Positions 3,320 to 34,694 of a DNA stretch of 64,000 nt are shown one piece after another. Within the stretch, counting starts at the first letter, position 1. Each line of letters begins with the position of its first letter. The notes under the pieces are model-generated. The model saw only the letters and a list, made by a program, of their open reading frames with translations, did no database searches and was not told the origin of the DNA. The translations under genes were made by a program, and so were the position numbers. Origin of the DNA: Planctomycetota bacterium (GTDB lineage: Bacteria > Planctomycetota > Phycisphaerae > FEN-1346); NCBI GenBank assembly GCA_030602705.1, contig JAUVZF010000009.1, forward strand, positions 94 through 64,093, in the 5' to 3' direction.

Positions 3320-3396
3320 GCAAAAAGGTTCCAGGAACCTTTTCCCCGAAGGGCCCGCAGGGTGCTACGCAGAAAAGGTTCCTGGAACCTTTTTGC
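3320..3396. repeat. 77-bp palindromic MITE-like element, copy 1 (GCAAAAAGGTTCCAGGAACCTTTT ... AAAAGGTTCCTGGAACCTTTTTGC flanking a 29-bp core)
   Basis: Perfect 24-bp inverted termini. The same 77-bp element recurs at 28103..28179 with the core inverted. A GGCCCGTACGGGCC hairpin lies just upstream at ~3266. Confidence 0.85.
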
Positions 3397-3499
3397 AGGG
3401 TGGCACATGGCACGGGTCTGAAAACGCTACACCGCCGGCCGTCGAGATGGTACGCTTGTGTCGGCGAGCGGCGGTTGCACGCGAGGCGCAAGATAGACC

Positions 3500-6400
3500 A
3501 TGCGTGGAGCAGGATCATCCCGTGGTTTTCTCAGCACCGCCCTCGTACTACAACGAAACTTGAGTCTTTGTGCCCGCCTGGCGGCGTGCCCAGGCCGCCA
3601 GGAACGTGTCCCAGGGCCTTTCGCGGCGGCATGGTCCAGTACGGAGGCGTATGCCGAAGGCCGCCGCGCGGGAGGCCTCGTTGTAGTGCTGGTCCTCGCT
3701 GTCCTGACGGTGGGTGTCGTGGCGGCCGAGACGGCGGCCCGAAAGCCCGGCGGCGGGCCGGCGCCGCGCGGCCTGTTTCACCCGAAGGACGCCAGGGTCT
3801 GGGACAAGTCGGGCCACAAGTTCGTCTGGCGCGACGCGTGCGGAAACAGTATGGATGACCACCGGTTGGCCGGCGGCTTCGAGTGGGAAGGCGACTCGCG
3901 CGACTTCATCGCCCTGGGCGAAGGACGGGTGCGGAACGAACGCCGCAACGGCCTCTTCATGCTCTCCTTCCCCGACGGAAACGTGCTCAGCGCCTCGTGG
4001 CCGGTTGAGTTCCCGAAGGGGCACGTCTGGCGGCTGCAGTACGCCCTCACCAACGAGGCGGCCGCGAAGACCGCCAACGGCCTCAAGTTCACCGTCGTGG
4101 CCACCGATGCCGCCGGCGACCCGCATACGCTGGTCGAGCGGGTCTTGCGGCCGCGCGACGACCGCGTCTACGACGAGCAGATCCGATTCGACTTCGACGT
4201 GCGCAAGATCACGTTCGTCCACGACAACCTCGGCAGCGAGATGTGGGACGTATTGTGGATTCTTCCCGACGGCCTCGTGATTCCCCGGGTGAGGGTGCCG
4301 GCCGGGACCGAGGCGAGTTTCACAGCCCTGCGGCGGGCCATCGAGGATTTGTGCCGCACCTTCCCCCGCGACTACCCGCGCGGCCCGGAGTTCCTGGGTC
4401 GACTGGACCAGTTCCAGAAGAGCCTTGCCGAGATAACGAAGCCCGAGGACCTGGCGAACCTGACCCGCGATTTTCTGGCGCTGCGCCGCGAGGCGCTGAT
4501 CGCGAACCCCCTCGTCAGCGGCCAGCCCATCCTCTACGTCGTCCGGCCACAGTACCGCAGCCACTATCACGCCATCGACACACTGTTTCACACGGGGGAG
4601 TTCAACGTCGACAGAAACGAGCCGCACACCAACCTGTTCCAGGGCGGCGGCGCGATGAAGACGATCGACCTCGCGCGCGGCGGCGAGGTGAAGGTCCTGG
4701 TCGACGTGCCCGCGGGCGTTGCCCGCGACCCGGAGGTGCACTTCGACGGGCAGAAAATTATCTTTGCGCTCCGCCGCAACGTGCGCGAAGACTACCACAT
4801 CTGGGAGGTGAATGCCGATGGTTCGGGCATGAAGCAACTCACGTTTGCGGCGGGCGTCTCCGACTTCGACCCCATCTACCTGCCCGACGACACGATTGTC
4901 TTCTCATCGACGCGCGAGCCGAAGTTCAATCAGTGCTCGCGCGACCACGCGGCCAACCTCTTCCGCATGGAGGCCGACGGGGCCAACATTCACCAGATCG
5001 AACGCAACAACCTGTTCGATAACCAGCCGTCGCTGATGCCCGACGGCCGCATTTTCTACGCCCGTTGGGAATATGTCGACCGCAACTTCGGCGACGCTCA
5101 CAGCCTGTGGACCGTCGGCCCGGACGGGACGAACCAGGCCGTCTTCTGGGGCAACAACACGGCCTCGCCGGGCGCGGTCTACACGGCGCGCATCCTCCCC
5201 GGCACGAACCGGGCCATCTGCATCTTCGGCCCGCACCACGACCACCTGTGGGGGGCGATGGCGATTATCGACCCGAGCCTGGGCCTCGACGGTCGCGAGC
5301 CGGTCGTCCGCATCTGGCCGCCGGAGGCCATCAACCTCATCCGCACGGGCGGCCCGTTCGACTGCGACACGTTCTCAAGGGTGCGCCTCAAGTACGCCGA
5401 CCCGTACCCGCTCAGTGACCCCGCGACGGGCCGGGGGGCAGGTAAGTACTTCCTTTGCTCTCGCAGGACCGGCCGCGGCGACCAGATGGGAATTTACCTG
5501 GTTGACGTCTTCGGCAACGAACTGCTGCTGCACGCCGAGGGGCCGGGCTGCTACGACCCGATGCCGGTCGGACCGCGGCCGCGCCCGCCGGTTGTCCCCC
5601 CGCGGCGTGACTTTTCCGGCGCCCCGGGCCTGCTTTACGTCATGGACGTGTATCAGGGGACGCACATGCGCGGGGTCGAGCGCGGAACGGTGAAGCGGCT
5701 GCGCGTCGTCGAGTCGCCCGAGAAACGGCTCTGGTCGGCCGGCAGTTGGAACGGCCAGGGCTACACCGCGCCGGGGATGAACTGGCACAGCCTCGAGAAC
5801 AAGCGCATCCTCGGCTCTGTGCCGGTCGAGGAGGACGGGTCCGCGTACTTCGCCGTCCCGTCCGACCGGTTCGTCTACTTCCAGTTGCTCGACTCCAACG
5901 GGATGATGATCCAGTCGATGCGAAGCGGCACGATGGTGCAATCGGGCGAGCGGACCGGATGCGTCGGGTGCCACGAGGATCGCCTCACGGCCCCGCCGAA
6001 CCACCGGAGCCTGGCCGTGTCGCGACCCCCGCGAAAACTGGAGCCCTGGCACGGCCCGCCGCGCCTGTTCAGTTACATGGCCGAGGTCCAGCCGGTCTTC
6101 AACCGGCACTGCCTGGGGTGCCACGACTACGGCAAGAAGGGCGCGAAGAAACTCGTCCTCGCGCCCGACCGCGACCTGACGTTCAACGCCGCCTACAACG
6201 AACTCTGGCGCAAAGGCTACACGGGCGCCGTGGGCGGCGGACCAGCCGAGATCCGGCAAGCACGCTCCTGGGGCTCGCACGCCAGCAAACTGGTGCAGGT
6301 CCTTCGCAAGGGGCACAACGACGTCAAACTCAGCCCGGAGGAGTTCGACCGCATCGTCACCTGGGTGGACCTGAACGCGCCGTACTACGCCCACTACGCG

Positions 6401-6817
6401 TGCGCTTACCCGGACTCGCTCACCGGCCGCTGCCCGCTCGACGGCGGGCAACTCCGGCGCCTGACCCAACTGACGGGCGTGCCTTTCGGCCGCCTGAAGG
6501 GGCATGGCAGCAATCGCGGGCCGCAGGTTAGTTTCGACCGGCCCGAACTCAGCCCCGCTCTGGCGAAGTTCAACGACAAGGGCGACCCGAGGTATGCCGA
6601 AGCCCTCGCCATCATCGGCGCGGGACAGGAGATGCTCCGGAAACGCCCCCGGGCCGACATGCCCGGCTTCGTTCCGTGCGAGACCCACCGGCGCCGCCAG
6701 GCCAAGTATGACGCACGCCGCCGCATCGAAGCCGCTAACCGCCAGGCCATCCGCGAAGGAACCAAACGCTACGACGACCGGCCGACGCCGGGAACCGGCA
6801 AGGCCGGCGGCGAGTAG
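3500..6817 (+). CDS. secreted beta-propeller (PD40/TolB-like) + di-haem c-type cytochrome protein, HzsA-like architecture, paralog 1 (start uncertain: ATG 3500 or GTG ~3686)
   Basis: Long ORF with a hydrophobic stretch LVVVLVLAVLTVGVVAAETAA. PD40-like repeats include DFDPIYLPDDTIVFSS, MPDGRIFYARWEYVDRNFGDAHSLWTVGPDGTN. Two CxxCH motifs (GCVGCHED, HCLGCHDY) lie in the C-terminal third. Paralogous to 31333..33717 and 49714..52281. Confidence 0.85.
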   Translation: MRGAGSSRGFLSTALVLQRNLSLCARLAACPGRQERVPGPFAAAWSSTEAYAEGRRAGGLVVVLVLAVLTVGVVAAETAARKPGGGPAPRGLFHPKDARVWDKSGHKFVWRDACGNSMDDHRLAGGFEWEGDSRDFIALGEGRVRNERRNGLFMLSFPDGNVLSASWPVEFPKGHVWRLQYALTNEAAAKTANGLKFTVVATDAAGDPHTLVERVLRPRDDRVYDEQIRFDFDVRKITFVHDNLGSEMWDVLWILPDGLVIPRVRVPAGTEASFTALRRAIEDLCRTFPRDYPRGPEFLGRLDQFQKSLAEITKPEDLANLTRDFLALRREALIANPLVSGQPILYVVRPQYRSHYHAIDTLFHTGEFNVDRNEPHTNLFQGGGAMKTIDLARGGEVKVLVDVPAGVARDPEVHFDGQKIIFALRRNVREDYHIWEVNADGSGMKQLTFAAGVSDFDPIYLPDDTIVFSSTREPKFNQCSRDHAANLFRMEADGANIHQIERNNLFDNQPSLMPDGRIFYARWEYVDRNFGDAHSLWTVGPDGTNQAVFWGNNTASPGAVYTARILPGTNRAICIFGPHHDHLWGAMAIIDPSLGLDGREPVVRIWPPEAINLIRTGGPFDCDTFSRVRLKYADPYPLSDPATGRGAGKYFLCSRRTGRGDQMGIYLVDVFGNELLLHAEGPGCYDPMPVGPRPRPPVVPPRRDFSGAPGLLYVMDVYQGTHMRGVERGTVKRLRVVESPEKRLWSAGSWNGQGYTAPGMNWHSLENKRILGSVPVEEDGSAYFAVPSDRFVYFQLLDSNGMMIQSMRSGTMVQSGERTGCVGCHEDRLTAPPNHRSLAVSRPPRKLEPWHGPPRLFSYMAEVQPVFNRHCLGCHDYGKKGAKKLVLAPDRDLTFNAAYNELWRKGYTGAVGGGPAEIRQARSWGSHASKLVQVLRKGHNDVKLSPEEFDRIVTWVDLNAPYYAHYACAYPDSLTGRCPLDGGQLRRLTQLTGVPFGRLKGHGSNRGPQVSFDRPELSPALAKFNDKGDPRYAEALAIIGAGQEMLRKRPRADMPGFVPCETHRRRQAKYDARRRIEAANRQAIREGTKRYDDRPTPGTGKAGGE

Positions 6818-7025
6818 TCGCCGGCGAACGGCGGGGGACGGGCATCCTCTGGCAGCGGCCACGGGCGTGGACCATGGCGAGGCGCAGGCATCTGGCGGGC
6901 GCGGTGGCGGCGTTTCTTGTACCGTTATGGGGCCGCTGAAAACCACACAAAGTGAACGTTATTTCACGATAGTGCCGTTTTCTGCGGGTTTGGGGGGGAG
7001 AAAAAAAGATATCCGCCCGTGCGAT

Positions 7026-7053
7026 TTGACTTTTCCGGGATTTGTGCTATAGT
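7026..7053 (+). promoter_or_regulatory. sigma70-like promoter (TTGACT-16 nt-TATAGT) upstream of PEP-CTERM gene
   Basis: The hexamers and spacer were read directly from gcgatTTGACTtttccgggatttgtgcTATAGTatcacg. Confidence 0.5.
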
Positions 7054-7057
7054 ATCA

Positions 7058-7285
7058 CGTTGGTGCGGAGCAAGGGGCAAGCGGTTTGGGGGGACCGAAC
7101 CGGATGCCCTTTATCCATGTCGCCCAGCAAGGATAGGAGGAGCATAGCACGGGCCCCGTTGTGGGGATACGAGTGGGCCCAGGACCGTTGGCCTTTAGAG
7201 GGAGGCCGGCGGAGCGAAACTGAATAGTTAAGCCGGATTCTTGTGGCGATTTCTGGAGGGAAAGCCTTCGGAGATCGTCTTTTTT
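7058..7285 (+). promoter_or_regulatory. ~225-nt transcribed leader ending in a hairpin (cgatttc...gagatcg) + T-tract; candidate attenuator/riboswitch-like element
   Basis: AT-richer, structured-looking sequence lies between the promoter and ATG 7329. The terminator-like element TCTTTTTT sits at 7278-7285. Confidence 0.3.
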
Positions 7286-7328
7286 GTTGAACGAGCCAGT
7301 CGTTCGGAAAAGGGAAGAGAGGGCGATT

Positions 7329-7967: not shown

Positions 7968-8194
7968 CGCCGCTTTTGGCGCCGGGCGCGCCGAAGCGCC
8001 CGGTGGATAGGCAATCGGGGTTTCCCGGGCGATTCGCGGTTTCGTAAGACTTCTCCGACACCGTCGCGCAGAGTTGATTGCTGTGTCCTGATTGAAGGCG
8101 AGAGCGGGACCGGCAAGCGGCTCGTGGCGCGGCGTTTGCATTTTGCCGCTGCCCGGTTGCGCGGGCGTGGCAAGTTTTTCTGGCGAGCGCAGGC

Positions 8195-8279
8195 GGTTGT
8201 AGCGCCGGGCTTTATGCCCGGCGGCCGTTGGCGGCGGCGCCAGCCAGGATGCGCCGGGGATAAACCCCGGCGCTACGGC
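8195..8279. repeat. GGTTGTAGCGCC...GCCGGGGATAAACCCCGGCGCTACGGC MITE-like element, divergent copy A (flanked by 15-bp direct repeat GCCCGGTTGCGCGGG at 8146 and 8322)
   Basis: Shares its termini and the GGGGATAAACCCC core with the copies at 9935..10044 and 41820..41929. Confidence 0.7.
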
Positions 8280-8352
8280 CAAGCCGCAGGAAATCGTCCC
8301 ATGCCGGAAATCGTTGCCGGCGCCCGGTTGCGCGGGCCCTCCGGAAACTCTC

Positions 8353-9765
<1,413 letters not shown>

Positions 9766-9934
9766 CGCTAACCCCCCGGCCGGTGCCGGTTGACCCGCGC
9801 CCAGTGTACCGGCGGGCGCCGGGCGTTTCAATGGCCGCCACGTCGTTGCCAGGTTGAAACAGCAGCACCGCGGCCAGCGTCCGTGATACTTGGCCCCCGG
9901 TGAAGATACCGGGGGCAGTGTTGCGCGCTCCTGA

Positions 9935-10044
9935 GGTTGTAGCGCCCGTACGGGCGCCCGCCCGTCAGGCCGACGGCGGTTCCGCGCCGGGGATAAACCC
10001 CGGCGCTACGGCTGTTCGGAAAGACTTCCTCGCTCCTGCCTAGT
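9935..10044. repeat. 110-bp GGGGATAAACCCC MITE-like element, copy B
   Basis: Near-identical to the inverted copy C at 41820..41929. It has terminal inverted GTAGCGCC/GGCGCTAC and an internal GCGCCCGTACGGGCGC palindrome. Confidence 0.8.
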
Positions 10045-12191: not shown

Positions 12192-13730
12192 GTGCGGCTG
12201 ATGCGCAAGCGCTACCTCGGGATTCTGCTCGTCTGTTTCCTCGCAGTTTGCCTCGCCTGCGTCTCCCATGCACGGGCCGCCGGGCCGACCGCAGCCGTCA
12301 AAACGCTTCGCGCTCGTTGCGAGCAGATCCTCGCCGGCGCCGGACTCGCGAAGACGGTAGTTGCGGTCCACGCCGTTGCTCTGGCGGCCCCGCCGGGGCA
12401 CGTACGAAACGACGTGCTCTACAGCCTGCGGCCGGACGTGCCGCTCATCCCCGCCAGCACGATGAAACTGGTGACGACGGCCGCCTGTTTCGACCGCCTG
12501 GGTCCCGACTGGCGCATCCGGACGCACGTCGGCCGCATCCCATCGACCACGCAGAAAGGCAAGTGGGACCTGGCGGTCATCGGCGGCGGCGACCCGAACT
12601 TCTCCGGACACTCCTACGCAGGCGACACCATCGGCGCGTTCCGCCGGTGGGCCGAGGTCCTCAAGGGGCGCGGCGTGACGGCCGTCGAGCGGGTCATCCT
12701 GGACGATACGCTCTTCGACACCGTGCTCGTGCATCCGAACTGGCCGGCCAATCAGCGGGCCAAGTGGTACGAGGCCCCCGTCGGCGCCCTCTCGATCAAC
12801 GACAACTGCGCCAGCATCCACGTGGCGCCGGGCAAGGTGGGCGGGCCGGCACGCGTGTGGCTCGAACCGCCCGGCGGCATCGCACGCATCACGGGCAGGA
12901 TACTGACGGTCGCCGACCGCAAGGCCCACCTGTTCAGCCTCGAGCGGGTGGTGGACGAGCAGGGCCTGACGATCCGCGCCGCCGGCCGCTATTGGAGCAA
13001 GGCGCCTGCGGTGGTCGAGTTCCGCACGCTCGACGACCCGACTCGCGTCTTCGGCCTGGCGCTGGTGCATGCGCTTCGGGCATCCGGCATCGAGGTGGGC
13101 GGGCCGGTGGTGCGTGCCCGGCTGGCGGCCCCCGGGGGCGCTGCGCGAAGGGATTTCGTCTGCGACTTCGTTCACGTCTCCCGTCTTGACTCCACCGTCG
13201 CCGTGGCCAACAAACGGAGCCAGGGGATGTACGCCGAGTGTCTGCTGAAACTGCTCGGCGCCTACGGCCTCACGCCGCACGTCACCACGCTGTTGCCGCC
13301 GCGGCAGGGATCGTGGCAGAGCGGGGCCGAGGAGGTCCGCCGCTGGCTCTCGCAGCGCGGCGTGCCGAACGCCGGGTGCGTCTTCGACGACGGCTCCGGC
13401 CTGTCGCGCCGGAACCGTCTGACGGCCTTCACCGTGACGCACCTTCTGGGGTTGATGCACCGGCTGCACGGCGCGAGGTTCGTCCAGACGCTCTCGGTGG
13501 CCGGCCGCGACGGCAGCCTGCACAAACGCATGCGCGGCACCGCCGCCGAGGGACGCGTGTACGGTAAGACGGGCTACGTGCGCGGCGTCAGCGCCCTGTC
13601 GGGCTACGTCTACGCCGCGAGCGGCCGGGTCATAGCGTACTCGATTCTGATGAACAACCTTCCCCCCCCCGCCCTCTGGAAGGCGCGCCTCGCGCAGGAC
13701 AAAATCTGCATTCGCCTTGTTGACATGTAG
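12192..13730 (+). CDS. dacB: D-alanyl-D-alanine carboxypeptidase/endopeptidase (PBP4, peptidase S13)
   Basis: Signal peptide. Motifs SxxK (ASTMK), SxN-like DGSGLSRRN and KTG (KTGYV). ~500 aa. Confidence 0.8.
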   Translation: MRLMRKRYLGILLVCFLAVCLACVSHARAAGPTAAVKTLRARCEQILAGAGLAKTVVAVHAVALAAPPGHVRNDVLYSLRPDVPLIPASTMKLVTTAACFDRLGPDWRIRTHVGRIPSTTQKGKWDLAVIGGGDPNFSGHSYAGDTIGAFRRWAEVLKGRGVTAVERVILDDTLFDTVLVHPNWPANQRAKWYEAPVGALSINDNCASIHVAPGKVGGPARVWLEPPGGIARITGRILTVADRKAHLFSLERVVDEQGLTIRAAGRYWSKAPAVVEFRTLDDPTRVFGLALVHALRASGIEVGGPVVRARLAAPGGAARRDFVCDFVHVSRLDSTVAVANKRSQGMYAECLLKLLGAYGLTPHVTTLLPPRQGSWQSGAEEVRRWLSQRGVPNAGCVFDDGSGLSRRNRLTAFTVTHLLGLMHRLHGARFVQTLSVAGRDGSLHKRMRGTAAEGRVYGKTGYVRGVSALSGYVYAASGRVIAYSILMNNLPPPALWKARLAQDKICIRLVDM

Positions 13731-14063
13731 GCCGGGGCGTGCCCCGGCGTTCATGAGGAGGGTGGCACGGCAGTCCCACCGGGACGGCCGTGGGCCTCAA
13801 TCTCATGCGAAACGCACGGCCGGGCAAGACCGGCCGTGGCACACGTCCGGTTCGGTGCTCGGTCAGAATGAGAGATCAACTGCCCGCGATGCCTGTCGGA
13901 TGCTTCTCCAGAAACTCGGCGTGATGCGCACGGCCCGTTGAGTCTTTTAGGTTGCCGGGCCGGGCAGGGGGGCCTAATATCGACGGTGCGCCTTCTGGGA
14001 GTGGGTATCATCGCGGCGGTCCAGAGAGGCTGCCGCGCAGCGCAGGGGTTAGGGAGGGCATTG

Positions 14064-15764: not shown

Positions 15765-15956
15765 ACCACGTACATCGGCAAGCCAGCGGCCTTACTTTAG
15801 CGGTGCAAAGGTCAATAATACCGAATGACTAATGAATGACGAAACGATAATGATGAATGGCGAAGGGCGTGGGGGGGTTCCTTTCTCGCCTCTCGCCCGG
15901 CCGGGTCGCTCGTGGCAAGTGCTGCTTCGTCATTCGTCATTGCCGTTTGATTCGTC

Positions 15957-16109
15957 GTACCTGTTTAGCGTGCTCTCGAAGCGATGTCATTTCGACCGAG
16001 CCCTCGCCAAAGGCGAGGGCGAGCGGAGAAATCTCGTCGTCCGGACACGGATAACGGCGAGATTCCTCGACTCGCTTCGCTCCCTCGGAATGACACGCTA
16101 AACACGTAC
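15957..16109 (+). mobile_element. 153-bp MITE (GTACCTGTTTAGCGTG ... CACGCTAAACACGTAC) copy 1 with 8-bp TSD GATTCGTC
   Basis: The TSD is present at 15949-15956 and 16110-16117. It is inserted inside a GACGAATG-type repeat block immediately right of the IS630. It has a central palindrome CCCTCGCCAAAGGCGAGGG. Confidence 0.9.
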
Positions 16110-16179
16110 GATTCGTCATTCGGGCTTCGTCATTCGTCATTTGCGGGCCGGCCATACGGCCCGTAGGGGAGGGCAGCGG

Positions 16180-17562
16180 ATGTTGAGTGTCCTGGCGGAG
16201 TTTCCCTTTCACCTGCTGGCCATGGCGCTGCTGTTGGGGGCGTCGGCGTTCTTCTCCGGCGCCGAGACGGCGATGTTCAACCTCTCACGGGAGCAACTGC
16301 GCCGGTTCCGCCTCTCACGGAGTCCGTTTCGCCGGGTCGCCGCCCACCTCATGGACGAGCCGCGGCGGGTGCTGGTGACCGTTCTGGCCGGCAACATGAC
16401 GGTGAACGTGGCGTTCTTCGTCATGGGCGTGATGCTCATGCACAGGGTCGGCGTGCGGCAGCCGGAGGCGGTAGGCACGTGGCGGTTCGTCATCGGGACG
16501 CTCACGCCGCTGCTGGTCATCGTCTTCGGCGAGGTCACGCCGAAGAGCGTTGCGGCCACGATGCCGGGCCGGCTGGCCCCCGTGGCCGGTCTGCCGCTCA
16601 TGGTGCTCGGCTACGTTGTGCTTCCGGTTCGGCTCCTGCTCGGTTACGCGGTCGTTGTGCCGCTCACGCGTCTGATTACCGGCGGCCGCAGCAGGCAGGA
16701 GCGCGGTTTCGTGACGACCGAGGAACTCCGGGCAATCGTCGAGGTGGCCGAAAACGAGGGCACCGTCTCCAGCGCCGAGAGCGACATGCTCGCCGACATC
16801 CTCGAACTCGGCCAGATGAGGGTCCGCGAAGTCATGACGCCGCGAGTCGAGATCGTCGCCTGCGACGTCGGCACACCCACACCCGGTGTCCTGCCCGTCT
16901 TCAAGCGGTCGATGAAGACCAAGATCCTTGTGTACGAAGGGCGGATGGACAACGTCGTCGGCGTGGTGTACGCCAAGACGGCGCTGCTGAACCCCGAGGC
17001 GCCGCTGGCCGACCTGGTGCGGCCGGTCCATTACGTGCCGGAGACCAAGACGGTCGAGAGTCTGCTGAAGATGTTCCGATCGCGGCGGATTCAGTTCGCC
17101 GTGGTGGTGGATGAATACGGCGGCCTGGCGGGCCTTGTGACGCTGGAAGATTGCCTGGAAGAGATCGTCGGCGAGATCGAAGACGAGACCGACCGTCCCT
17201 CGGCCGAGCCGGTGCAGCGGCTGAGCGGATCGCAGTACCTGCTGGCAGGCAACCTCTCGATCCGCAGTTGGGAGGACCTGTTCGACATGGACCTTCCGGA
17301 GGGCGGCGGCCGGTACTCGACGGTGGCGGGGTTCGTGACCAGTTTGCTGGGGCGGTTGCCACAGTGCGGCGACACGGCCCGCTACAGGAACCTCGAGTTC
17401 TGTGTGGACCAGGTCCGCCGCCGGCGCGTGACGCGCGTCCGCCTGCGTCTGCTGCCGGGAGGCGACGCGCCCGGCGCCGTAAGGCATCCGTCTGAAAAGG
17501 ATACGGGCCCGTATGGGGAAGCGGCCGACGGTGCTGCCGCCGAGGCGGAAGGTGACGAGTGA
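16180..17562 (+). CDS. CNNM/CorC-family transporter (DUF21 TM domain + CBS pair + CorC_HlyC)
   Basis: Domain order was read from the translation: [15 protein letters not shown]..., a CBS pair, and the C-terminal CorC/HlyC transporter-associated domain. Confidence 0.8.
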
Positions 17563-18584
17563 TGGACGCGGTGCTTGAACTGCTCGATCCGTGGGGCCTG
17601 TATCTGCTGGCCCTGGTCGGCATGGCCGTCGCCGCCCTGGCCAACGGCATGGAGACGGGTCTGTACCGTCTGAACCGGATCCGGCTTCGCCTCAGGGGCG
17701 GGCAGGGCGACCGCCGCGCCGCCGTCCTGCTCGCGCTTCTGAAGGACCTGCGCGGCATGATCATCGTCTGCCTCATCGCGTACAACGGCGGCGTCTATCT
17801 GACGACGATCGTGGTGACGACGCTCGTGGCGGCGTCGGGCTGGGTCGGAACGGCCGCCGGCGTCGAGGTGTTGGCGACGGCTATCCTGACGCCGCTCTTC
17901 TTTGTCTTCACGGACGTGACGCCCAAGAGCATCTTTGTCGTGGAGGCGGACCGATGGACGTATCCGTTGGCGCATCCGATGCGGTGGGCTTATGCCCTGC
18001 TGCGGGGCGTGGGGCTGGTGCCGGCCCTTAAGGGCGTCAGCAATCTGGTGCTGCGGATCGCCAAGACCAGCGGCGCCGAGGGCGCTAACCCGTTCACACC
18101 GCGACAGCGGCTCCGGGCCGTCATCCGCGAGGGAGTGGCCGAGGGCGTCATCACAGGCTACCAGGACGAACTGGTGGAGAAGGTCCTGGGCCTGCGCGAA
18201 CGACCCGTGCGGCAGGTGATGATCCACATGAGGTACGTGGCAGCGGTTCCGGCGAACGTCAGCCGGCAGCGGTTCAGGCGGGAACTCAGCCGCCACTCCT
18301 ACACGCGACTGCCCGTCTATGAAAAGCACCGGGACAACATCGTCGGCATCGTTCGCATCAACGACGTGCTGGCCGAGGGTGGCCAGGCGTTCGACCTCTC
18401 GCGCATCATGAGCCGCGAGGTCGTCACGGTGCCGCCCGAGATGACGGTCAGCGCGGCGATGCTGCGCATGCGAGGGGCACGGGCCGCCATGGCCATCGTC
18501 CATGACGCCAGGGGCCGGGCCGTCGGCATCATTACGATCAAGGACCTCGTTGAGGAGATCGTCGGCGAATTGGCGGCCTGGTAA
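17559..18584 (+). CDS. CNNM-family DUF21 + CBS-pair membrane protein (paralog; no CorC_HlyC tail)
   Basis: ATGA overlap with the upstream gene. Begins ANGMETGLYRLNRIRLRL and carries CBS motifs. Confidence 0.75.
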   Translation: MMDAVLELLDPWGLYLLALVGMAVAALANGMETGLYRLNRIRLRLRGGQGDRRAAVLLALLKDLRGMIIVCLIAYNGGVYLTTIVVTTLVAASGWVGTAAGVEVLATAILTPLFFVFTDVTPKSIFVVEADRWTYPLAHPMRWAYALLRGVGLVPALKGVSNLVLRIAKTSGAEGANPFTPRQRLRAVIREGVAEGVITGYQDELVEKVLGLRERPVRQVMIHMRYVAAVPANVSRQRFRRELSRHSYTRLPVYEKHRDNIVGIVRINDVLAEGGQAFDLSRIMSREVVTVPPEMTVSAAMLRMRGARAAMAIVHDARGRAVGIITIKDLVEEIVGELAAW

Positions 18585-18603: not shown

Positions 18604-19075
18604 TATAGCAGGGTGGCACGGCCACGCGCAGCGTGACCGTGGGCTCCTCGGCGCGATGCGGCCCACGGCCGCGTCTTCGCCGCTGCCGTGCCACCTTCCT
18701 GGCCGGGTGGCACGGCCACGCGCAGCGTGACCGTGTGCTCCTCGGCGCGACGCGGCCCACGGCCGCTGCTTCGCCGCTGCCGTGCCACCCTCCTGGCCGG
18801 GTGGCACGGTCTCGCGCAGCGTGACCGTGTGCTCCTCGGCGCGACACGGCCCACGGCCGCTGCTTCGCCGCTGCCGTGCCACCTTCCTGGCCGGGTGGCA
18901 CGGCCCCGCGCAGCGTGACCGTGTGCTCCTCGGCGCGATGCGGCCCATGGCCGCGTCTTCGCCGCTGCCGTGCCACCCTCCTGGCCGGGTGGCACGGCCA
19001 CGCGCAGCGTGACCGTGGGCTCCTCGGCGCGACACGCACCACGGCCACGCATACTGCCGCGTGACCGTGCCACCC
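18604..19075. repeat. 94-bp tandem repeat x5 (each unit bounded by GGTGGCACGG ... CCGTGCCACC inverted repeat)
   Basis: ORF-track hits every 94 nt (18688, 18782, 18876, 18970). Units differ only by scattered SNPs. The array is intergenic. Confidence 0.9.
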
Positions 19076-19178
19076 TCTGTGTCGCGCTTGCCTGCAAACC
19101 CCCGCGCCACCGTTTTTGCTTTCTCCCCATCCGGCGCCGCGCTATAATCCGGTTCCCTGTTTCCGAGGAGACCGTTTG

Positions 19179-21860
19179 ATGTGGACACGATGTGCGGCAG
19201 GGCTGCTGGTAGGGGTGCTGCTTGCCCTGGCGGCGCCGGCGTCTGGTGAAGAGGCCGTGCCGGCGAAGCCCGCCCAGGCGGCGATTCCGGCCCAGCCGGT
19301 TGCCGAAAAAGGCGCCGGCCAGGTCTGGGACCTCCCGCCCGAGGTCATGCAGGTGCTGAACCTGACGGGGCTGCAACTCCGCCTGCTCGGACAGGTGTTT
19401 CGCCAGTATGCCTATGAGACGCCGCCACCGCCCAAGGCCGACGCCGCCTTCGGCGTCAAGGTCGATGCGAGCGTACCCGGCGGCCTGTACCGGATGGGTT
19501 CCGGCGGCGACCTTCCCGTCCGGCTGGTTGTGACCGCCTGCTCGACCGGCACGCCCTCGGCCGTTAGCCTTCGCTACCTGGCTCAGGATTTCTACGGGCG
19601 CAAGGTGGCGTCCGGCACGCTGCCGCCGGTCTATCCCGACAAGTTCGGCATGGCTGCGGCCGACCTGATTCTGAAGGAACTGTCGGCCTTTGGCTATTAC
19701 CACGTTCTGGTCACGGCAACCCGCGAGGGGCGCAGCGTCACGGGTTGGTGCGGCGTTGCGGTCGTGCATCCGTTGCCCGAAGGCCCCGACCCGAAGAGCC
19801 CGTTTGGGTTGGTGGCGCCGCCGGGGAAGATGTCGGCCGACGTGCCGCCGGTCTGCCGCCGGCTCGGCGTCGGCCATCTGGCGTTCGACTGGACCGGCGA
19901 CGAGGCGGCCGCCCGCGCTGCGGTCAAAGCGGGCCTGGTTCCGTTGGCCATCGTTGGGCTGGAGATTCCTCAGCACAGCCCCGCCGCTGACGACTTTTCC
20001 TCGACGATGAGCGACGCGATTGCGCGGCGCGTCGAGACGGTGGCGGACTGGCAGATCGGCCGGCGGCCGGTTTTCGCCCCCGGCGCGTTGGCCGAGGCCG
20101 CCGCCTCGTATCGGCAGGCGATCTCGGGTCTGATTCAGGGTGTCCGGCGGCGGGAGACACCGGCTCGGCTGTGGGTGGCCGCCTCGCCCGACGCACTCGC
20201 CGGCGTTCTCACGGAAGGGCCCGTCCTGGCGGGCGCCGACGGCGTCAGCCTGTACGTCGATGCGGGCGCGCGTGAGGCGAACCTAAGGAGCGGCGCCTAC
20301 CGGCGCTCGCTCGACTATGGCATCCAGGTGGCCCGAAGATTGGGCATCGAGCGGACCGTCATCGGCACCGGCGACGACCCGTCGGTCCACTTGCCGCAGC
20401 GACAGGCGTGGAAACTGGTGACCCGCCACATCGTCTCGTTGGCGGCCGGCGCCGAGCGCGTCTACGTCTCGTGGGGCCGCGGGCTGCCCACGCCCGTCTC
20501 TTCGGCCGCCGCCTACGCCTGGATGACTCATCTGCTGGACGGCGCCATCTACGAAGGCGATGCCTGGGCCGGCGTGCCGCTGATCGAGGCACACCTGTTC
20601 TCCGGCCCTGAACGGCGTGCGGCTGTGGTCTGGTCGTGGGTCGGGACCGACCCGCAGGCTCCGGACCGGGGCCTGTTGGTCTTTGACGACGGCCTGGGGC
20701 TGGAGGCGCTGGACGTGGTCGGTCAGCCTGTGGCCATCTGGAAGGGCAGACAACTGATCGTCCCGTTTGGCGAGGCGCCCGTTTACCTGGTCAGCGGCGA
20801 ACTGAGCGTCGGCCGGATGCGCGAGCGCCTCCGCAAGGCGAGGATTCTGGGCGTCGGTCCCGCCACGGTCCGCATCGAAAGCATCATCCGCGGCGGCATC
20901 CCGGGCAAGGTGAACGTAACCCTCTGGATTCAGAGCCACCGGCCGCACAAGCAGGAGGGGGTAGCGGGGTTGCTGTTGCCGGAGGGCTGGCGGGCCAGGC
21001 AGGGCAAGCGCCGGTTCCGGTTGGAGGCGGGCCAGGTACGCGAGGTTACCTTCGAGTGCGACGTGGCCGCCGACGCCGGTCGCGGACCGTATGCGATTGA
21101 GGCCGTCGTTTCGCTCGACGAGCAATACGTCCGGTGCAGTCAGAACGTGTGGCCGGCCCAGACGGTCGAGCGGACGATCGAGGTCGGCTACGGCCTGGCG
21201 GACTGGGAGGGCATCGAGCCGGTCGTTCTGGAGGATGCCGGCGGCGACGTGTGGGCCGAGGTCCGGACGGCCTGGGACAAGGAGTTCTTCTACTTCTCGG
21301 CCGCCGTCCGGCGCAAGCGCGGTACGTTCAAGGCGGGCACGCACGCTTTCGGGGGCGATGCCGTCCAACTTGCGTGGGGCCTTTCAAGGCGGGCCGACGA
21401 CGACTTCGGCCACAAGGCGAAAGACTTGGCCTTGCCGGCCGGCGCGTTTCGCGATACCGACCACCTGATGGCACTGACGTTCGGCCGCGACGGGGCCGCC
21501 GTGGTTCGCCTTCGCGCCCCTCGCGTGGCCCTGCGGACCCACTGGCCGGGCAACCAGGACGGTTGGTACGGCCCGGTGGAAGGGGCCGTGGCCGACATCG
21601 CACGCGATCAGGCCATCGGGTACACGCTGTTCGAGGCGGCGATCCCGATGAAGGAACTGGCGCCGCTGAAGGGGGCGCGCGGCCGGATCTTCCGGTTCGG
21701 GTTCCGCATCGGCAACGGCGACGGCCGGCCGCTGGAATGGTCGCGGACGGCGGGGGTGCCCGACTACCTCGCCAACCCGTGCAGTTTCCTGCCGGCGTCG
21801 CTGGCCGACGGCCTGCCGTGCCAGACGTGGTGGGGAATGACGGGGGAGAAACAGCAATGA
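19179..21860 (+). CDS. large secreted hypothetical protein (possible glycoside-hydrolase-like with C-terminal carbohydrate-binding-like domain)
   Basis: Signal peptide MWTRCAAGLLVGVLLALAAPASG. ~890 aa. The domain call is weak. Confidence 0.6.
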   Translation: MWTRCAAGLLVGVLLALAAPASGEEAVPAKPAQAAIPAQPVAEKGAGQVWDLPPEVMQVLNLTGLQLRLLGQVFRQYAYETPPPPKADAAFGVKVDASVPGGLYRMGSGGDLPVRLVVTACSTGTPSAVSLRYLAQDFYGRKVASGTLPPVYPDKFGMAAADLILKELSAFGYYHVLVTATREGRSVTGWCGVAVVHPLPEGPDPKSPFGLVAPPGKMSADVPPVCRRLGVGHLAFDWTGDEAAARAAVKAGLVPLAIVGLEIPQHSPAADDFSSTMSDAIARRVETVADWQIGRRPVFAPGALAEAAASYRQAISGLIQGVRRRETPARLWVAASPDALAGVLTEGPVLAGADGVSLYVDAGAREANLRSGAYRRSLDYGIQVARRLGIERTVIGTGDDPSVHLPQRQAWKLVTRHIVSLAAGAERVYVSWGRGLPTPVSSAAAYAWMTHLLDGAIYEGDAWAGVPLIEAHLFSGPERRAAVVWSWVGTDPQAPDRGLLVFDDGLGLEALDVVGQPVAIWKGRQLIVPFGEAPVYLVSGELSVGRMRERLRKARILGVGPATVRIESIIRGGIPGKVNVTLWIQSHRPHKQEGVAGLLLPEGWRARQGKRRFRLEAGQVREVTFECDVAADAGRGPYAIEAVVSLDEQYVRCSQNVWPAQTVERTIEVGYGLADWEGIEPVVLEDAGGDVWAEVRTAWDKEFFYFSAAVRRKRGTFKAGTHAFGGDAVQLAWGLSRRADDDFGHKAKDLALPAGAFRDTDHLMALTFGRDGAAVVRLRAPRVALRTHWPGNQDGWYGPVEGAVADIARDQAIGYTLFEAAIPMKELAPLKGARGRIFRFGFRIGNGDGRPLEWSRTAGVPDYLANPCSFLPASLADGLPCQTWWGMTGEKQQ

Positions 21861-22257
21861 CGAATGACGAAATCCGAATGACGAATCAAACGACAAGATC
21901 GAATGCCGAATGACAAAACGCGAGAGGCGTGATGTGCTGCTGTGGGAGTTGTTTTGGTGTTCGTCATTGCTGTTTCGTCATTCATTCGTCATTCGGGCTT
22001 CGTCATTCGGCATTGTAGTTGTAAGGCAGTTTCCTGCCGGTGTCGCTGGCCGACGGCCTGCCGTGCCAGACGTGGTGGGGAATGACGGGGGAGAAACAGC
22101 AATGACGAATGACGAATCAAACGACAAGATCGAATGCCGAATGACAAAACGCGAGAGGCGTGATGTGCTGCTGCGGGAGTTGTTTTGGTGTTCGTCATTG
22201 CTGTTTCGTCATTCATTCGTCATTCGGGCTTCGTCATTCGGCATTGTAGTTGTAAGG
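21782..22257. repeat. tandem duplication (245 + 231 bp) comprising the last ~75 nt of the upstream CDS plus a GACGAATG-type MITE (TIR CAATGACGAATGACGAA / TTCGTCATTCGGCATTG)
   Basis: The two units are near-identical. The second lacks a 14-nt ATCCGAATGACGAA. The stop codon of the CDS lies at the MITE junction. Confidence 0.85.
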
Positions 22258-26849: not shown

Positions 26850-26948
26850 GATCGCCGATTTCAGATTTCAGATTTCAGATCTCAAATCCCAAATCTCAGA
26901 TTTCAGATCTCAGATTTCAGATCTCAAATCTCAGATTCCAGATTCGCG
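26850..26948. repeat. heptanucleotide microsatellite ~14 units (CAGATTT/CAGATCT/CAAATCT)
   Basis: Read from gatttcagatttcagatttcagatctcaaatcccaaatctcagatttcagatctcagatttcagatctcaaatctcagattccagatt. Confidence 0.9.
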
Positions 26949-27946: not shown

Positions 27947-28102
27947 TATGGCATCCCCTTCTTGAGCGTTTCCAGGTCTCACATGCTACCCGGCGGCTGC
28001 GATTTTTCAACCCAAATCCCGAGGCACTCGTAACGGCTCAGTTACGCGAGGGTGGCACGGCAGGTGCGAAGGGCGGCCGTGTGCGCCCCAGTGTCCAATC
28101 AG

Positions 28103-28179
28103 GCAAAAAGGTTCCAGGAACCTTTTCTGCGTAGCACCCTCCGGGCCCTTCAGGGAAAAGGTTCCTGGAACCTTTTTGC
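28103..28179. repeat. 77-bp palindromic MITE-like element, copy 2 (core inverted relative to copy 1)
   Basis: Identical 24-bp termini to copy 1. The core CTGCGTAGCACCCTCCGGGCCCTTCAGGG is the reverse complement of the copy-1 core (2 mismatches). Confidence 0.85.
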
Positions 28180-28213: not shown

Positions 28214-28702
28214 CTACCCGCCCATGCGGCTCTTGACGAACGCCATCAGGCCGCCGGCGGCGATGATGTCCTGAATCTCCTTCGTAAACGGGGCAAACGT
28301 AAACGCGTTGCCGGTGGTCAGGTTTTTGAGTTCCCCCTTGGCCGGATCCACTTCGACCTGGTCGCCGGGACGGATGTCTTCGACCGCTTCGGGGCAGGCG
28401 ACGATCGGCAGGGCGATGTTGATCGCGTTGCGGAAGAAGATCCGGGCGAAACTCCTGGCGATGACGCACGAGATGCCGGCCGCCTTGATCGCAATGGGGG
28501 CGTGCTCGCGGCTGGACCCGCAGCCGAAGTTCTCACCCGCCACGAGCACGTCGCCCGGCGCTGCCCTCGCGACGAACTCCGGGTCGGCGTCCTCCATGCA
28601 GTGGGCGGCCAGAAACTCCGGGTCGATCCGGTTCAGGTACCGCGCGGGGATGATCTCGTCGGTGTTGACGTCGTCGCCGAACACGTGCGCTTTGCCCTTC
28701 AT
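28214..28702 (-). CDS. leuD: 3-isopropylmalate dehydratase small subunit (aconitase-family small subunit)
   Basis: MKGKAHVFGDDVNTDEIIPARYL ... GENFGCGSSREHAP. No leuC is adjacent. Confidence 0.8.
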   Translation of the reverse strand: MKGKAHVFGDDVNTDEIIPARYLNRIDPEFLAAHCMEDADPEFVARAAPGDVLVAGENFGCGSSREHAPIAIKAAGISCVIARSFARIFFRNAINIALPIVACPEAVEDIRPGDQVEVDPAKGELKNLTTGNAFTFAPFTKEIQDIIAAGGLMAFVKSRMGG

Positions 28703-28975
28703 GCCTGTCTCCTCCGGCGGCAATCTAGCAGACGCGGCGAGCGGCGGCAATGCAAAAGGCGGCCCTATTTCACCGAGATCTCAAGCCCTTCGACGTCGAA
28801 CACGAAGTTGACGCTCGCGCGCACCTGCGACGGGTCGCGGAGTCAGTGCTCCGAGCCGCGACCGCAAGGAAGCGGCCGCTCCCTGGCGGGCGCGGCTCCG
28901 ATACGATGCGTGACGCCGGGTCCGGCGAGCGGCGACCTGTTGACGGTCGCGGCGAAGAAGTGAGACCCGTGCCGC

Positions 28976-29335
28976 CTACGGCCCGCCGCGCGCTTTGAAC
29001 ACGACCCGATCATCCGCGGCCAGGCCGATAACGCAGGTGAGGCGGGGGCCGCCGTGGTAGATGAGCCACACAACCGCGCCGCTCTTTTCGGCGTCGGCGT
29101 AGATCTGCTCGTGGCCTTTGCGCGGGCCGAGGCGGAACTCGACGGTCTCTTCAGCGGGCTCTCCCATCAGTTCCAGCACGGCCTCGCGCGAATGGCCGAA
29201 ATGGACCTGGTCCCATTCCGGATACTCGACGCCGTCCGTGTAGCGCTGCCAGAGGAGATAGGCCAGGACCACGATGGCGGCCAGGCCCGCCAGCAGGAAC
29301 AGTGTGCGACCCGTGCCGCTGCCTTTCGTCATCAT
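28976..29335 (-). CDS. small membrane protein
   Basis: MMTKGSGTGRTLFLLAGLAAIVVLAYLLWQRY, a single TM helix. Confidence 0.45.
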   Translation of the reverse strand: MMTKGSGTGRTLFLLAGLAAIVVLAYLLWQRYTDGVEYPEWDQVHFGHSREAVLELMGEPAEETVEFRLGPRKGHEQIYADAEKSGAVVWLIYHGGPRLTCVIGLAADDRVVFKARGGP

Positions 29336-29415
29336 CGTGTCCTCCCGGCAAAGCAGGTGCCTGTGGCCGGCCGCAAGCGGCTCCTGGCGGCAGGCAGCGA
29401 CGCAGTCCGATCGGC

Positions 29416-30849: not shown

Positions 30850-30923
30850 GGGCCTCACTCCTCCCGCCTTTCGTTGACGTAAAACCCGTCGTGCATGAAG
30901 AGCCCGAACTCCGCGTTGGCAAC

Positions 30924-31115
30924 CTACTCCAGCGCGGCTGCCTTGGGGTCCTTTCGGTACAGGTCCGCGTACTCTTTCAGGTAGGATAGCACGCTTGACT
31001 CGCTCACCGTCTTTTTCTCCCTCTGAGCGAGACCGTTGGCACAGCCGCCTGCGCCGAGCGCGATCCCCGCACCGAGAGCCTGTGGGAATTGCCTTCGCGT
31101 CTGTTTGGGTATCAT
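30924..31115 (-). CDS. small ORF with twin-arginine signal (TRRQFPQALGAGIALGAGG); small exported peptide or gene remnant
   Basis: 63 aa. Carries a Tat motif. Lies in a 480-bp divergent intergenic region. Confidence 0.3.
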   Translation of the reverse strand: MIPKQTRRQFPQALGAGIALGAGGCANGLAQREKKTVSESSVLSYLKEYADLYRKDPKAAALE

Positions 31116-31332
31116 CCGTCTCTTCGTGCGGCAGTGCTGCTTCCCGCGCGCCCCACGATGCTACTTGCCGGCCTGGGCGTTTGCAAGGGCAACAAGGACG
31201 CGGGATGACTGGCGCCGGCTTTGACTCGGGCACCGGGAGTTTGCACAGCACGATTGGCTGTGAGCGCGGTTACACGTAATGAAGGACCGCATGGTGGGTG
31301 TGCGCCGAAGCAGGCGGTTGTGACGGGGGTCG

Positions 31333-33717: not shown

Positions 33718-33821
33718 CGGCAGGGGGCCGCACGTTGGGTGCAGCAGGTCTGCTCTTCCGCCCGCCGTTTCGGCATTTTGCCTTGATTCGTCCCGCGCGG
33801 CCGCATACCGTCGGTTCCACC

Positions 33822-34694
33822 ATGCAGCCCGACGAGCGCACCTACACGACGAGCGACGGCACCGAACTGCCGGTGCGGGTTTGGCCGCCACCAAAAAAGG
33901 TACCAGGTACCTTTTTGGCGAGGCCCGCGGCGCTCGTGTATCTGCACGGCATCCAGAGCCACTCGGGATGGTACGAAGCGTCGTCGCGGCGCCTGGCGGA
34001 GGCGGGCGTGGCGGTCTATCAGATTGAGCGTCGCGGCAGCGGGCGCGATGCGGACCACGAGCGCGGTCACGTCGATAAGGCCGAAACGTGGCTCGAGGAC
34101 GTTGCCCGGGCGGCGGAACTGGCGCGCGACGAGACCGGCGCCGGCAGCGTTCACCTGATGGGCATCTCGTGGGGCGGCAAACTGGCGATGGCGTGCGCCG
34201 CCCATCGGCCGGACCTGTACCGCAGCCTTATCCTCTCGGCGCCCGGCATCGTGCCCATCGTCGATGTTGCGGTGACGATCAAGGTCCGCATCGCGAAGTG
34301 CCTGATGATGGGCCGGGAACTCAGACGGTTCCCCATCCCGATCGACGACCCGCACCTTTTCACCGAGAACCCCGACCGGGTGCGCTACATCGCCGAGGAC
34401 GAACTGAGCCTGCGCGACCTGACGGCCCGGTTCATGTACGAGAGCCGCCGCCTCGACCGGATGGTCCGCGCAGCCGCCGCGACCGTCCGCGTACACACGC
34501 TGCTGCTGCTTGCCGAGCGCGACCGCATCATCAACAACGAAGCCACGCGGGCGCTCATCTATTCGATGGCCGCACGCAAGCGGGTCATCACGTACCCGGG
34601 CGCGCACCACACGCTGGAGTTCGAGGTGGCCCCGCAGCCGTACTTCAAGGACCTCGCGGCCTGGATCGACCAGGTGGAGGGGGAAAGCCCGTGA
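33822..34694 (+). CDS. alpha/beta-hydrolase (lysophospholipase / monoglyceride-lipase-like)
   Basis: LVYLHGIQSHSGWY and nucleophile elbow GISWGG. It contains an in-frame copy of the AAAAAGGTACCAGGTACCTTTTT palindrome encoding PPKKVPGTFLA. Confidence 0.8.
   Translation: MQPDERTYTTSDGTELPVRVWPPPKKVPGTFLARPAALVYLHGIQSHSGWYEASSRRLAEAGVAVYQIERRGSGRDADHERGHVDKAETWLEDVARAAELARDETGAGSVHLMGISWGGKLAMACAAHRPDLYRSLILSAPGIVPIVDVAVTIKVRIAKCLMMGRELRRFPIPIDDPHLFTENPDRVRYIAEDELSLRDLTARFMYESRRLDRMVRAAAATVRVHTLLLLAERDRIINNEATRALIYSMAARKRVITYPGAHHTLEFEVAPQPYFKDLAAWIDQVEGESP
33892..33918. repeat. single 21-bp palindrome of the AAAAGGTTCCAGGAACCTTTT family (variant GGTACC) embedded in-frame in a CDS
   Basis: Read from ccaAAAAAGGTACCAGGTACCTTTTTgg. 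Confidence 0.8.

Follow-up and report, generated by a model that had tools for sequence, protein, structure and literature searches.

Palindromic elements in the window

The DNA analysed here comprises 64,000 nucleotides of contig JAUVZF010000009.1 (assembly GCA_030602705.1) from a Planctomycetota bacterium, and this whole 64-kb stretch is referred to as the window. Two intergenic sites of the window each carry a 77-bp palindromic element, and a related single unit lies within the coding sequence (CDS) of an alpha/beta hydrolase gene (Table 1). We examined them as candidate repetitive extragenic palindromic (REP) units, standing singly or, as in REP doublets forming hairpins (REPINs), in inverted pairs. 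Element 1 precedes the ATG of a gene for a 1105-aa HZS_alpha/PD40 protein (3500-6817, + strand) by 104 nt, and element 2 lies 35 nt past the stop codon of a leuD-like gene (stop at 28214; listed open reading frame (ORF) 28214-28750, - strand), whose LeuD orthologues have 162 aa.

Each 77-bp element consists of two 21-nt palindromes, AAAAGGTTCC-W-GGAACCTTTT, flanking a 29-nt core, and the sequence of element 1 is GCAAAAAGGTTCCAGGAACCTTTT + CCCCGAAGGGCCCGCAGGGTGCTACGCAG + AAAAGGTTCCTGGAACCTTTTTGC. The outer ends of both elements are AAAAGGTTCC-A-GGAACCTTTT extended to GCAAAAAGG.. and AAAAGGTTCC-T-GGAACCTTTT extended to ..CCTTTTTGC. A preliminary description of this DNA had proposed that one repeat family is present in both orientations, and its sequences, coordinates and identical 24-bp inverted termini were borne out. 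It had also proposed a core that is flipped between the copies. The 29-nt core of element 2 is indeed the reverse complement of that of element 1, with 2 mismatches, but since the 24-nt termini, which are the same in both elements, are exact inverted repeats, the apparent flip is that of the whole element lying in the opposite orientation. In a self-comparison of the window, elements 1 and 2 were 92% complementary across 89 nt.

Allowing up to 3 mismatches, the palindrome was found 5 times in the window (5 units at 3 sites) and 0 times in 100 dinucleotide shuffles; chance is expected to yield none of these copies. Because the window has a G+C content of 64-70% (background 67%), the A/T-rich palindromes stand out from their surroundings. 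The folding of the elements, a point raised in the preliminary description, was calculated, and both 77-bp elements fold as single long hairpins. Specifically, either strand as single-stranded DNA (ssDNA) forms one long hairpin of -34 to -38 kcal/mol (z = -7 to -9.5), with -36.6 kcal/mol (z = -9.1) for element 1 and -37 to -38 kcal/mol (z ~ -9) for element 2, and the RNA hairpin of element 2 is also stable. For a single unit the value is -6.9 kcal/mol, and the intragenic unit, taken together with its flanks, forms a local hairpin of -11.8 kcal/mol (z = -4.6). No match to Rfam at gathering thresholds was obtained anywhere in the window, and a full-text literature search for exact 13-17-mers found no relevant paper.

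Table 1. Palindromic features of the window, and inserts at the corresponding hydrolase loop in other lineages.
Feature	Position or source	Strand	Details
Putative REP doublet (REPIN-like), copy 1	3320-3396	+	left REP 3320-3343, 29-nt core 3344-3372, right REP 3373-3396
Putative REP doublet (REPIN-like), copy 2	28103-28179	-	element 1 in opposite orientation, 2 core differences
Putative single REP unit, GGTACC variant	33894-33916		inside hydrolase CDS; AAAAAGGTACCAGGTACCTTTTT, 23 nt
Host gene, alpha/beta hydrolase	33822-34694	+	Pfam Hydrolase_4, E = 7e-42; 290-aa ORF
Hydrolase loop insert, single unit	L183		GGAAAAGGGTCCTGGACCCTTTTCC, 24 nt
Hydrolase loop insert, doublet	L182		AAGGGGTCAGGAGCCTT-8-AAGGCTCCTGACCCCTT, 48 nt
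Hydrolase loop insert, long inverted repeat	L181		
Hydrolase loop insert, short-spacer doublet	L100		

The hairpin flanks genes of a Y1 transposase family

We scanned one genome per species (596 Gb) for AAAAGGTWCCWGGWACCTTTT and obtained at least 96 loci, where about 1 chance match is estimated for equal base frequencies. Among the matches listed, the labels include Phycisphaerae and other Planctomycetota, Bdellovibrio and relatives, Elusimicrobia, Omnitrophota, Acidobacteria, Actinobacteria and several others; pairs of units are often 50 or 63-65 nt apart, and besides them there are mixed forms (GGTACCAGGAACC, for example) and asymmetric ones like GGTGTCAGGAACC. Cultured bacteria that carry the family include Rhodopirellula baltica, Adhaeretor mobilis and Bdellovibrio sp. 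HCB-162. In a Sedimentisphaerales metagenome-assembled genome (MAG; L009), two doublets, among them AAAAGGTTCCAGGAACCTTTT, bracket a 247-aa ORF whose product matches Pfam Y1_Tnp (PF01797, E = 6e-16). A homologue of this transposase abuts a repeat unit in an Elusimicrobia genome (L030). Furthermore, a gene of the same family, that of REP-associated tyrosine transposases (RAYTs), is flanked at L163 by GGTACC-type doublets 89-91% identical to a doublet of L089. The latter belongs to MAG CAZIJC01, of which another contig (L098) is 88-93% identical to the window across 8 kb of synteny.

The transposase family is very large, with more than 7,900 proteins at E <= 1e-10 among 8,000 candidates scored, some of which are named REP-associated tyrosine transposase. 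When the family profile was compared with solved structures, Escherichia coli TnpAREP (4er8) was the best match (E = 5.6e-7), and ISDra2 TnpA matched at E = 0.009. The HWH and Y-x3-N motifs are invariant in an alignment of 30 members, and hmmscan of these 30 returned only Y1_Tnp, plus weak AT_hook matches in 2. The proteins have about 227 aa, with an uncharacterised C-terminal extension.

The flanks of the genes were surveyed at 80 metagenome loci encoding family members, using the motif AAAGGTNNCNGNNACCTTT with up to 2 mismatches. The motif was present within 400 nt upstream of the gene at 47 loci, downstream at 41 and on both sides at 36, with the nearest flanking pair inverted in 33 of these 36. 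The upstream copy usually stands about -38 to -41 from the start codon, and the usual downstream copy extends over the final 8 nt of the gene. Within 150 nt of the gene ends the motif reaches a density of 4.38 per kb vs 0.19 per kb further off, a 23-fold difference. The commonest unit beside the transposase genes is the asymmetric AAAGGTGTCAGGAACCTTT. The repeat family is best described as a hairpin with the stem AAAGGT/ACCTTT and a 7-nt loop NNCWGNN. Accordingly, the fourth "stem" position is free to vary (GGTACC, GGTTCC, GGATCC) because it belongs to the loop, which happens to be self-complementary in the window units.

Repeat copies can also lie in an array-like order. In the Elusimicrobia contig (L030, GWA2_51_34), the region 2200-5600 contains the RAYT homologue (2655-2200, - strand) followed by at least 4 REP doublets, one every 0.7-1 kb.

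Further copies of the 77-bp element and their constancy

At least 9 further copies of the 77-bp element, with unrelated flanks and the ends GGCAAAAAGG...CCTTTTTGCC, were found in MAGs CAYVAM01 and CAZIJC01. The alignment of nine copies contains 33 consensus pairs, one of which shows a compensatory double change. No direct target-site duplication abuts the ends in the 11 copies compared.

The site of element 2 was tested in contigs carrying LeuD orthologues; note that synteny of the window with L097 and L098 breaks at 28923, so that those contigs are unusable as an empty-site control. The doublet downstream of leuD is present in L184 (LeuD 96% identical; synonymous divergence (dS) 0.14) and missing in L186 (LeuD 86% identical), where leuD and the next gene are separated by a spacer of only some 50 nt. 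Exactly two substitutions in 77 nt distinguish the L184 copy from that of the window; they are complementary across both arms, so that the arm-to-arm pairing is kept and each unit's own palindrome is broken. From a dS of 0.14, about 11 changes would be expected in 77 nt instead of 2, and the left flank is about 25% diverged, indicating that the 77-bp element is kept nearly constant. This near-constancy may come from selection, from conversion between arms or copies, or from requirements of the transposase.

An uncompensated GGATCC variant is seen in one arm (alignment columns 21/63) of copies in MAG CAYVAM01, namely L017, L032, L046 (two copies) and L094. Seen from the core, the GGATCC arm is on the left in some copies and on the right in others; either this mutation arose on two occasions, or the 29-nt core is able to invert with respect to the arms. 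Beside element 2, at about 27995-28092 (- strand), the window has a 76-nt insert (..GGGGCGCACACGGCCGCCCTTCGCACCTGCCGTGCCACCC..GCGTAACTGAGCCGTTACG..) that is missing from the orthologous L184 spacer and is a presence/absence polymorphism of another repeat family. In addition, a palindrome-like sequence, AAATGGACCTGGTCCCATT, is found at 29199-29217 of the window and at 3501-3519 of L097; the ORF around it is small and conserved (119 aa in L097). It may represent either an intragenic unit that has decayed or a chance occurrence.

An in-frame unit in a hydrolase loop

The hydrolase ORF is full-length, and its GISWGG, LHG and HH motifs are present. The unit AAAAAGGTACCAGGTACCTTTTT encodes KKVPGTF within PPPKKVPGTFLARP, residues 22-35 of 290. 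The preliminary description had regarded it as a half-element of the 77-bp repeat. It is a related unit, but a GGTACC variant: compared with the intergenic units, two symmetrically placed positions are different (GGTACC vs GGTTCC/GGAACC). It is thus not identical to the termini, and measures 23 nt as written rather than 21. The accompanying proposal of an in-frame insertion at the variable loop before the HG motif agrees with the orthologues (112 in a neighbour-joining tree), most of which carry RPERPRA, a loop of 7 residues, between ..VW and AALVYLHG. In a single clade, made up of the window, P0001-P0006 and P0008-P0011, the loop has 14-15 residues and contains KKVPGTF, and P0012, the sister of this clade, has the short loop. 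In the orthologue alignment, no repeat-free orthologue keeps the peptide. At the DNA level, filled and empty loops differ by 24 nt net, in frame.

In an AlphaFold2 model of the hydrolase (mean pLDDT 82.8), residues 22-35 are predicted to form a coil between predicted strands 15-21 and 36-41, before the LHG motif. The ratio of nonsynonymous to synonymous divergence (dN/dS) of the hydrolase is 0.26-0.28 vs L097 and L099, and the gene is under purifying selection. The palindrome has decayed in the L097 hydrolase (GCA GCA).

At least four other lineages (L183, L182, L181 and L100; Table 1) carry different, independent REP variants at the same spot of the hydrolase gene. These inserts sit directly after TGG CNG CC. 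The empty site can form a small GGCGGC/GCCGCC hairpin; the idea that it is an exceptional hairpin was rejected, as its folding is no better than that of shuffles (z = -0.9). Across the 96 genome loci listed, 24 of 126 units stand at the tip of a longer locus-specific palindrome (at least 3 extra bp), vs 2 expected. This fits insertion into hairpin tips, which has already been reported for other REPs (PMC3733652).

The same loop also holds recurrent peptide or repeat inserts of other kinds, namely CPRNGGVGMPP, GEYPAASAAGS, ADPDASGP and ALAGPGAPGPVP, in the orthologues P0038, P0044, P0056, P0057, P0058 and P0066; P0026, P0039, P0043, P0051 and P0055; P0034 and P0036; and P0046 and P0082. Since inserts from unrelated repeat families occur in the same loop, it is a general insertion hot spot, reflecting either targeting at the DNA level or only the tolerance of the protein loop.

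Interpretation and alternative explanations

The hairpin flanks Y1 transposase genes, is enriched 23-fold at their ends and stands there in inverted pairs. On these grounds the elements are best read as REP singlets and REPIN-like doublets of a RAYT/TIRYT-type system. Very probably, therefore, the 77-bp elements are inverted REP doublets and the 21-23-nt units REPs of a family of RAYT/TnpAREP-type Y1 HUH transposases. Association with the Y1 family, the doublet architecture, the filled and empty orthologous sites, the constancy of the sequence and the in-frame survival of a unit in a surface loop are matters of observation. The mechanism is proposed by analogy with the IS200/IS605 TnpA enzymes of IS608 and ISDra2 and with E. 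coli TnpAREP (PMC6006769, PMC3479197). A transposase encoded elsewhere in the genome would recognise the hairpin (stem AAA(A)GGT / ACC(T)TTT, loop NNCWGNN) on ssDNA at replication forks, cut beside it and rejoin the strands. Doublets, and sometimes single units, would thereby be copied or moved to new sites without target duplication, often into the tip of an existing hairpin. Such insertions would be mostly intergenic, and within genes only those of 3n nt in tolerant loops would survive. One 24-nt insertion would have landed in frame in a tolerant surface loop of the hydrolase and then have been kept, the same loop being struck repeatedly in different lineages, and doublets once inserted would be held nearly constant in sequence.

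Several points weigh against this assignment. Only three sites are visible in the window, and no PF01797 homologue was found within its 64 kb by tblastn, so that the cognate transposase would lie elsewhere. The canonical 5' GTAG or GT[AG]G foot of classical REPs is missing, the flanks reading ..CAGG directly before GCAAAAAGG.., and the system is therefore not filed in the GTAG super-family. The best NCBIfam match of the L009 protein, REP_Tyr_transpos (NF047646), reaches 58 bits, where the curated cut-off is 80, and Pfam hmmscan of 30 family members at E up to 1 detected no helix-turn-helix (HTH)-like C-terminal domain (Bac_DnaA_C, HTH_23 or HTH_28). Furthermore, no RAYT flanked by the exact 77-bp type (50-nt spacing, this core) was recovered, and no biochemical test of any member of this protein clade was found in the cited literature.

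We also weighed whether the elements are instead host-selected structural signals, i.e., bidirectional terminators or stabilising hairpins at 3' ends, that are not mobile and resemble each other through selection for the fold. This would suit element 2, which is only 35 nt past the leuD stop and whose very stable RNA hairpin (-82.5 kcal/mol with flanks, z = -8.1) lies between runs of A and U, as well as the L184 copy with its two complementary changes in 77 nt vs the roughly 11 expected (dS = 0.14). REPs have moreover been reported to terminate transcription and to stabilise mRNA (PMC3733652, PMC6006769). However, element 1 is upstream of a gene and the third unit is inside a CDS, the U run belongs to the stem, and a terminator scan gave a single partial match in each region, a number not above that of shuffled sequences. 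In dozens of loci from many phyla, this hairpin stands on the flanks of a transposase gene, and neither presence and absence at orthologous sites nor five different inserts in one protein loop would be expected of terminators. We consider this explanation improbable. A secondary, exapted role of the terminator type is possible, with the doublets serving as transcript-end hairpins, for which the simple terminator scan gives no support.

Two further explanations ascribe the symmetry of the elements to other causes. With 77 bp, perfect 24-bp terminal inverted repeats, no coding capacity and flanks unrelated among copies, the elements look like miniature inverted-repeat transposable elements (MITEs), derived by internal deletion from a DDE-transposase insertion sequence and moved by cut-and-paste with target-site duplications. 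This is very unlikely, given that the copies are without direct target-site duplication, that each terminus is itself a hairpin and single 21-nt units also exist, and that the only gene repeatedly bracketed by the repeat encodes a Y1 HUH and not a DDE transposase. A doublet that arose by internal deletion of a RAYT gene together with its two flanking repeats would be compatible with a REP/RAYT origin and thus no rival to it. That the palindromes are operator sites of a dimeric DNA-binding regulator appears scarcely credible, in spite of their perfect dyad symmetry with a central W, their A/T-richness against 67% G+C and the position of element 1, 104 nt upstream of a gene start. One copy is within a CDS, another follows a gene, the commonest member beside RAYT genes is asymmetric (GGTGTCAGGAACC), the variable positions suit a hairpin loop rather than a dyad, and no regulator gene is associated with the sites.

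A REP/REPIN-type origin assigns an AT-rich palindrome in a GC-rich, uncultured planctomycete-like genome to a known mechanism, namely REP/REPIN-type repeats with a Y1 transposase. A broader proposal is possible but rather doubtful: that one very large RAYT-like family, in genomes labelled as a dozen phyla (including Planctomycetota, Bdellovibrionota, Elusimicrobiota, Acidobacteriota and Omnitrophota), has this one hairpin (AAAGGT/ACCTTT, 7-nt loop) as its conserved recognition element, and that the elements may in addition be directed to the tips of hairpins already present, those in coding DNA among them. If true, the shared hairpin would contrast with the common view that REPs are specific to a species and co-evolve with their RAYT, as well as with the largest RAYT subclass, which was reported to be without REP-like partners. 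Targeting of hairpin tips, if true, would explain the repeated independent in-frame strikes on one hydrolase loop. A hairpin core common to many phyla beside one transposase family and repeated independent strikes on one protein loop go somewhat beyond the cited literature; neither is categorically new. A simple hairpin shared across phyla beside a very large, experimentally untouched RAYT-like family offers an easy in vitro substrate for tests of DNA choice. Moreover, the natural series of independent in-frame insertions in one enzyme loop can be used to study target choice and the tolerance of proteins for peptides derived from selfish DNA. In genome annotation, these repeats can be recognised in predicted proteins by peptides such as KKVPGTF, KGVRNLF and KRFLTPF.

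Comparison with known systems

The REP, bacterial interspersed mosaic element (BIME) and REPIN sequences of E. coli and Pseudomonas fluorescens SBW25 with their RAYTs (PMC3116915, PMC3479197, PMC6006769) share with the present system short hairpin units and inverted doublets that fold into one long hairpin. The copies found here are likewise dispersed and apparently mostly intergenic, with compensated changes between arms and strong constancy among copies, and the repeats again border a single Y1 HUH transposase gene, for which TnpAREP is the closest relative of solved structure. On the other hand, the system described here has no GTAG/GT[AG]G foot, its stem is A/T-rich (AAAAGGT) in a genome of 67% G+C, and its hairpin core is common to genomes labelled as many phyla and not species-specific. 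Its transposases have about 227 aa, and the cognate gene is not seen within the window.

Among described systems, that of the window most resembles TIRtrons/TIRYTs. These are RAYT-like genes with inverted repeats at fixed distances that share GGGGWSAS, and their dispersed dimers are moderately abundant (Di Nocera et al. 2013, PMC3733652). Most TIRYTs are placed in subclass 2.1 (Quentin et al. 2018, PMC6006769), which equals RAYT Group 1 (Bertels et al. 2017, PMC5581495), and RAYT classes are treated in both studies; Quentin et al. (PMC6006769) found no REP-like structures beside subclass 2.1 genes. As in TIRtrons, the gene here is bracketed by an inverted motif of about 19 nt at fixed distances, the 3' copy extends into the end of the gene, dimers are dispersed elsewhere in the genome, and the taxonomic spread is wide. 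The GGGGWSAS consensus is matched by GGGGTCAG (L130, L141, L145, L179) and GGGGACAG (L109, L124, L136), and the commonest variant here, GGTGTCAG, is one base off it. The window units GGTTCCAG and GGTACCAG (GGTTCCWGG, GGTACCWGG) are off the consensus and fully self-complementary. Unlike in TIRYTs, no HTH-like C-terminal domain was detected in the transposase family.

Rickettsia palindromic elements (RPEs) were reportedly described by Ogata et al. in 2000. In-frame intragenic repeats of this kind are known from the Rickettsia RPEs and from Opitutus terrae (PMC3733652). The hydrolase unit resembles them as a palindromic repeat that stands in frame in a gene which, to judge from its sequence, stays functional, and that adds a short peptide in a loop. 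In contrast, RPEs are unrelated in sequence (they carry a CGTC tag) and are without a known transposase, whereas here several REP variants, as well as other repeat families, have independently struck one orthologous loop.

With IS200/IS605 insertion sequences, the present system has in common the catalytic family of the Y1 TnpA (PF01797), absence of target duplication and, by analogy, subterminal hairpins presumed to be recognised on ssDNA. It differs in that short hairpins are dispersed without the gene and that the protein profile is nearer to TnpAREP than to ISDra2 TnpA. The Y motif here is Y-x3-N; Y---NP is the signature of class 2 (TnpAREP-like), and Y----Q that of class 3, which is related to class 1 (PMC6006769).

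Other repeats and features of the window

According to the preliminary description, both full copies are followed by a GTGGCAC motif. The motif does follow both of them on the + strand (3400 and 28182) but is not part of the element, since it is missing beside 8 other copies and is not conserved at the orthologous L184 copy. A sigma-54 promoter, suspected by eye in ..TGGAACCTTTTTGC.. and GTGGCAC, was also dropped, because the distance from GG to GC is too short by one base and the copies do not conserve the motif. GTGGCAC occurs 27 times in the window vs 12.5 expected, with 11 of the 27 within one 94-bp tandem array. This array (4.9 copies, 91% identity, unit GGGTGGCACGGC...GCCGTGCCACCC) occupies 18611-19077 between the genes 17559-18584 and 19116-21860. 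Two intergenic families also bear the motif. One is a G+C-rich hairpin followed by GTGGCACA, with ggcccgtacgggccGTGGCACA found twice and ggccggRcaagaccggccGTGGCACA found twice; the other is AGGGTGGCACGGCAG. Sites of both families are 3264-3285, 13818-13843, 37063-37090 and 40342-40363, and also 13762, 28052 and 3398. The presence of GTGGCAC within these two other repeat families accounts for its occurrence beside both 77-bp elements.

A canonical GTAG-tagged REP, GTAGGCCGGGGCGTGCCCCGGC, with a GTAG foot and a G+C-rich hairpin, was found at 13727-13748, 40190-40211 and 40277-40302 (3-4 copies vs 0 expected), indicating that the genome hosts a classical REP family besides the AAAAGGT family. An element of about 150 nt is present three times (15957-16109, 46958-47107 and 49340-49492) with 86-100% identity and in both orientations. 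A pair of 122-nt inverted repeats (9923-10044 and 41819-41940) shows 92% identity, and a 28-nt hairpin unit, CGCCGGGGATAAACCCCGGCGCTACGGC, is common to this pair and a third site (8252-8279). A 115-nt direct repeat (41621-41735 and 43387-43501; 97% identity) brackets the gene 41969-43339 (- strand). Short intergenic tandem arrays lie at 26857-26944; at 15911-16141, 21959-22245 and 39189-39247; and at 40367-40607. The first consists of GATTTCA x 12.6, the next three loci contain ATTCGTC-type heptamers, and the last is a 112-bp repeat x 2.2 with embedded 21-nt units.

The MAG records that are about 90% identical to the window, namely L098, L026, L029, L057, L074 and L089 of CAZIJC01 and L012, L017 and others of CAYVAM01, are labelled "uncultured Anaerolineales". 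Homologues of the window proteins are named Phycisphaerae or Planctomycetes by their sources, and since proteins of these MAGs match ones so named, the Anaerolineales label looks wrong. The lineage is planctomycete-like, and the label of the closest MAGs is doubtful. Finally, the region 57212-58870 contains four tandem paralogous genes with a period of 493 nt, each encoding a prepilin-type N-terminus (GFTLIELLVVV).

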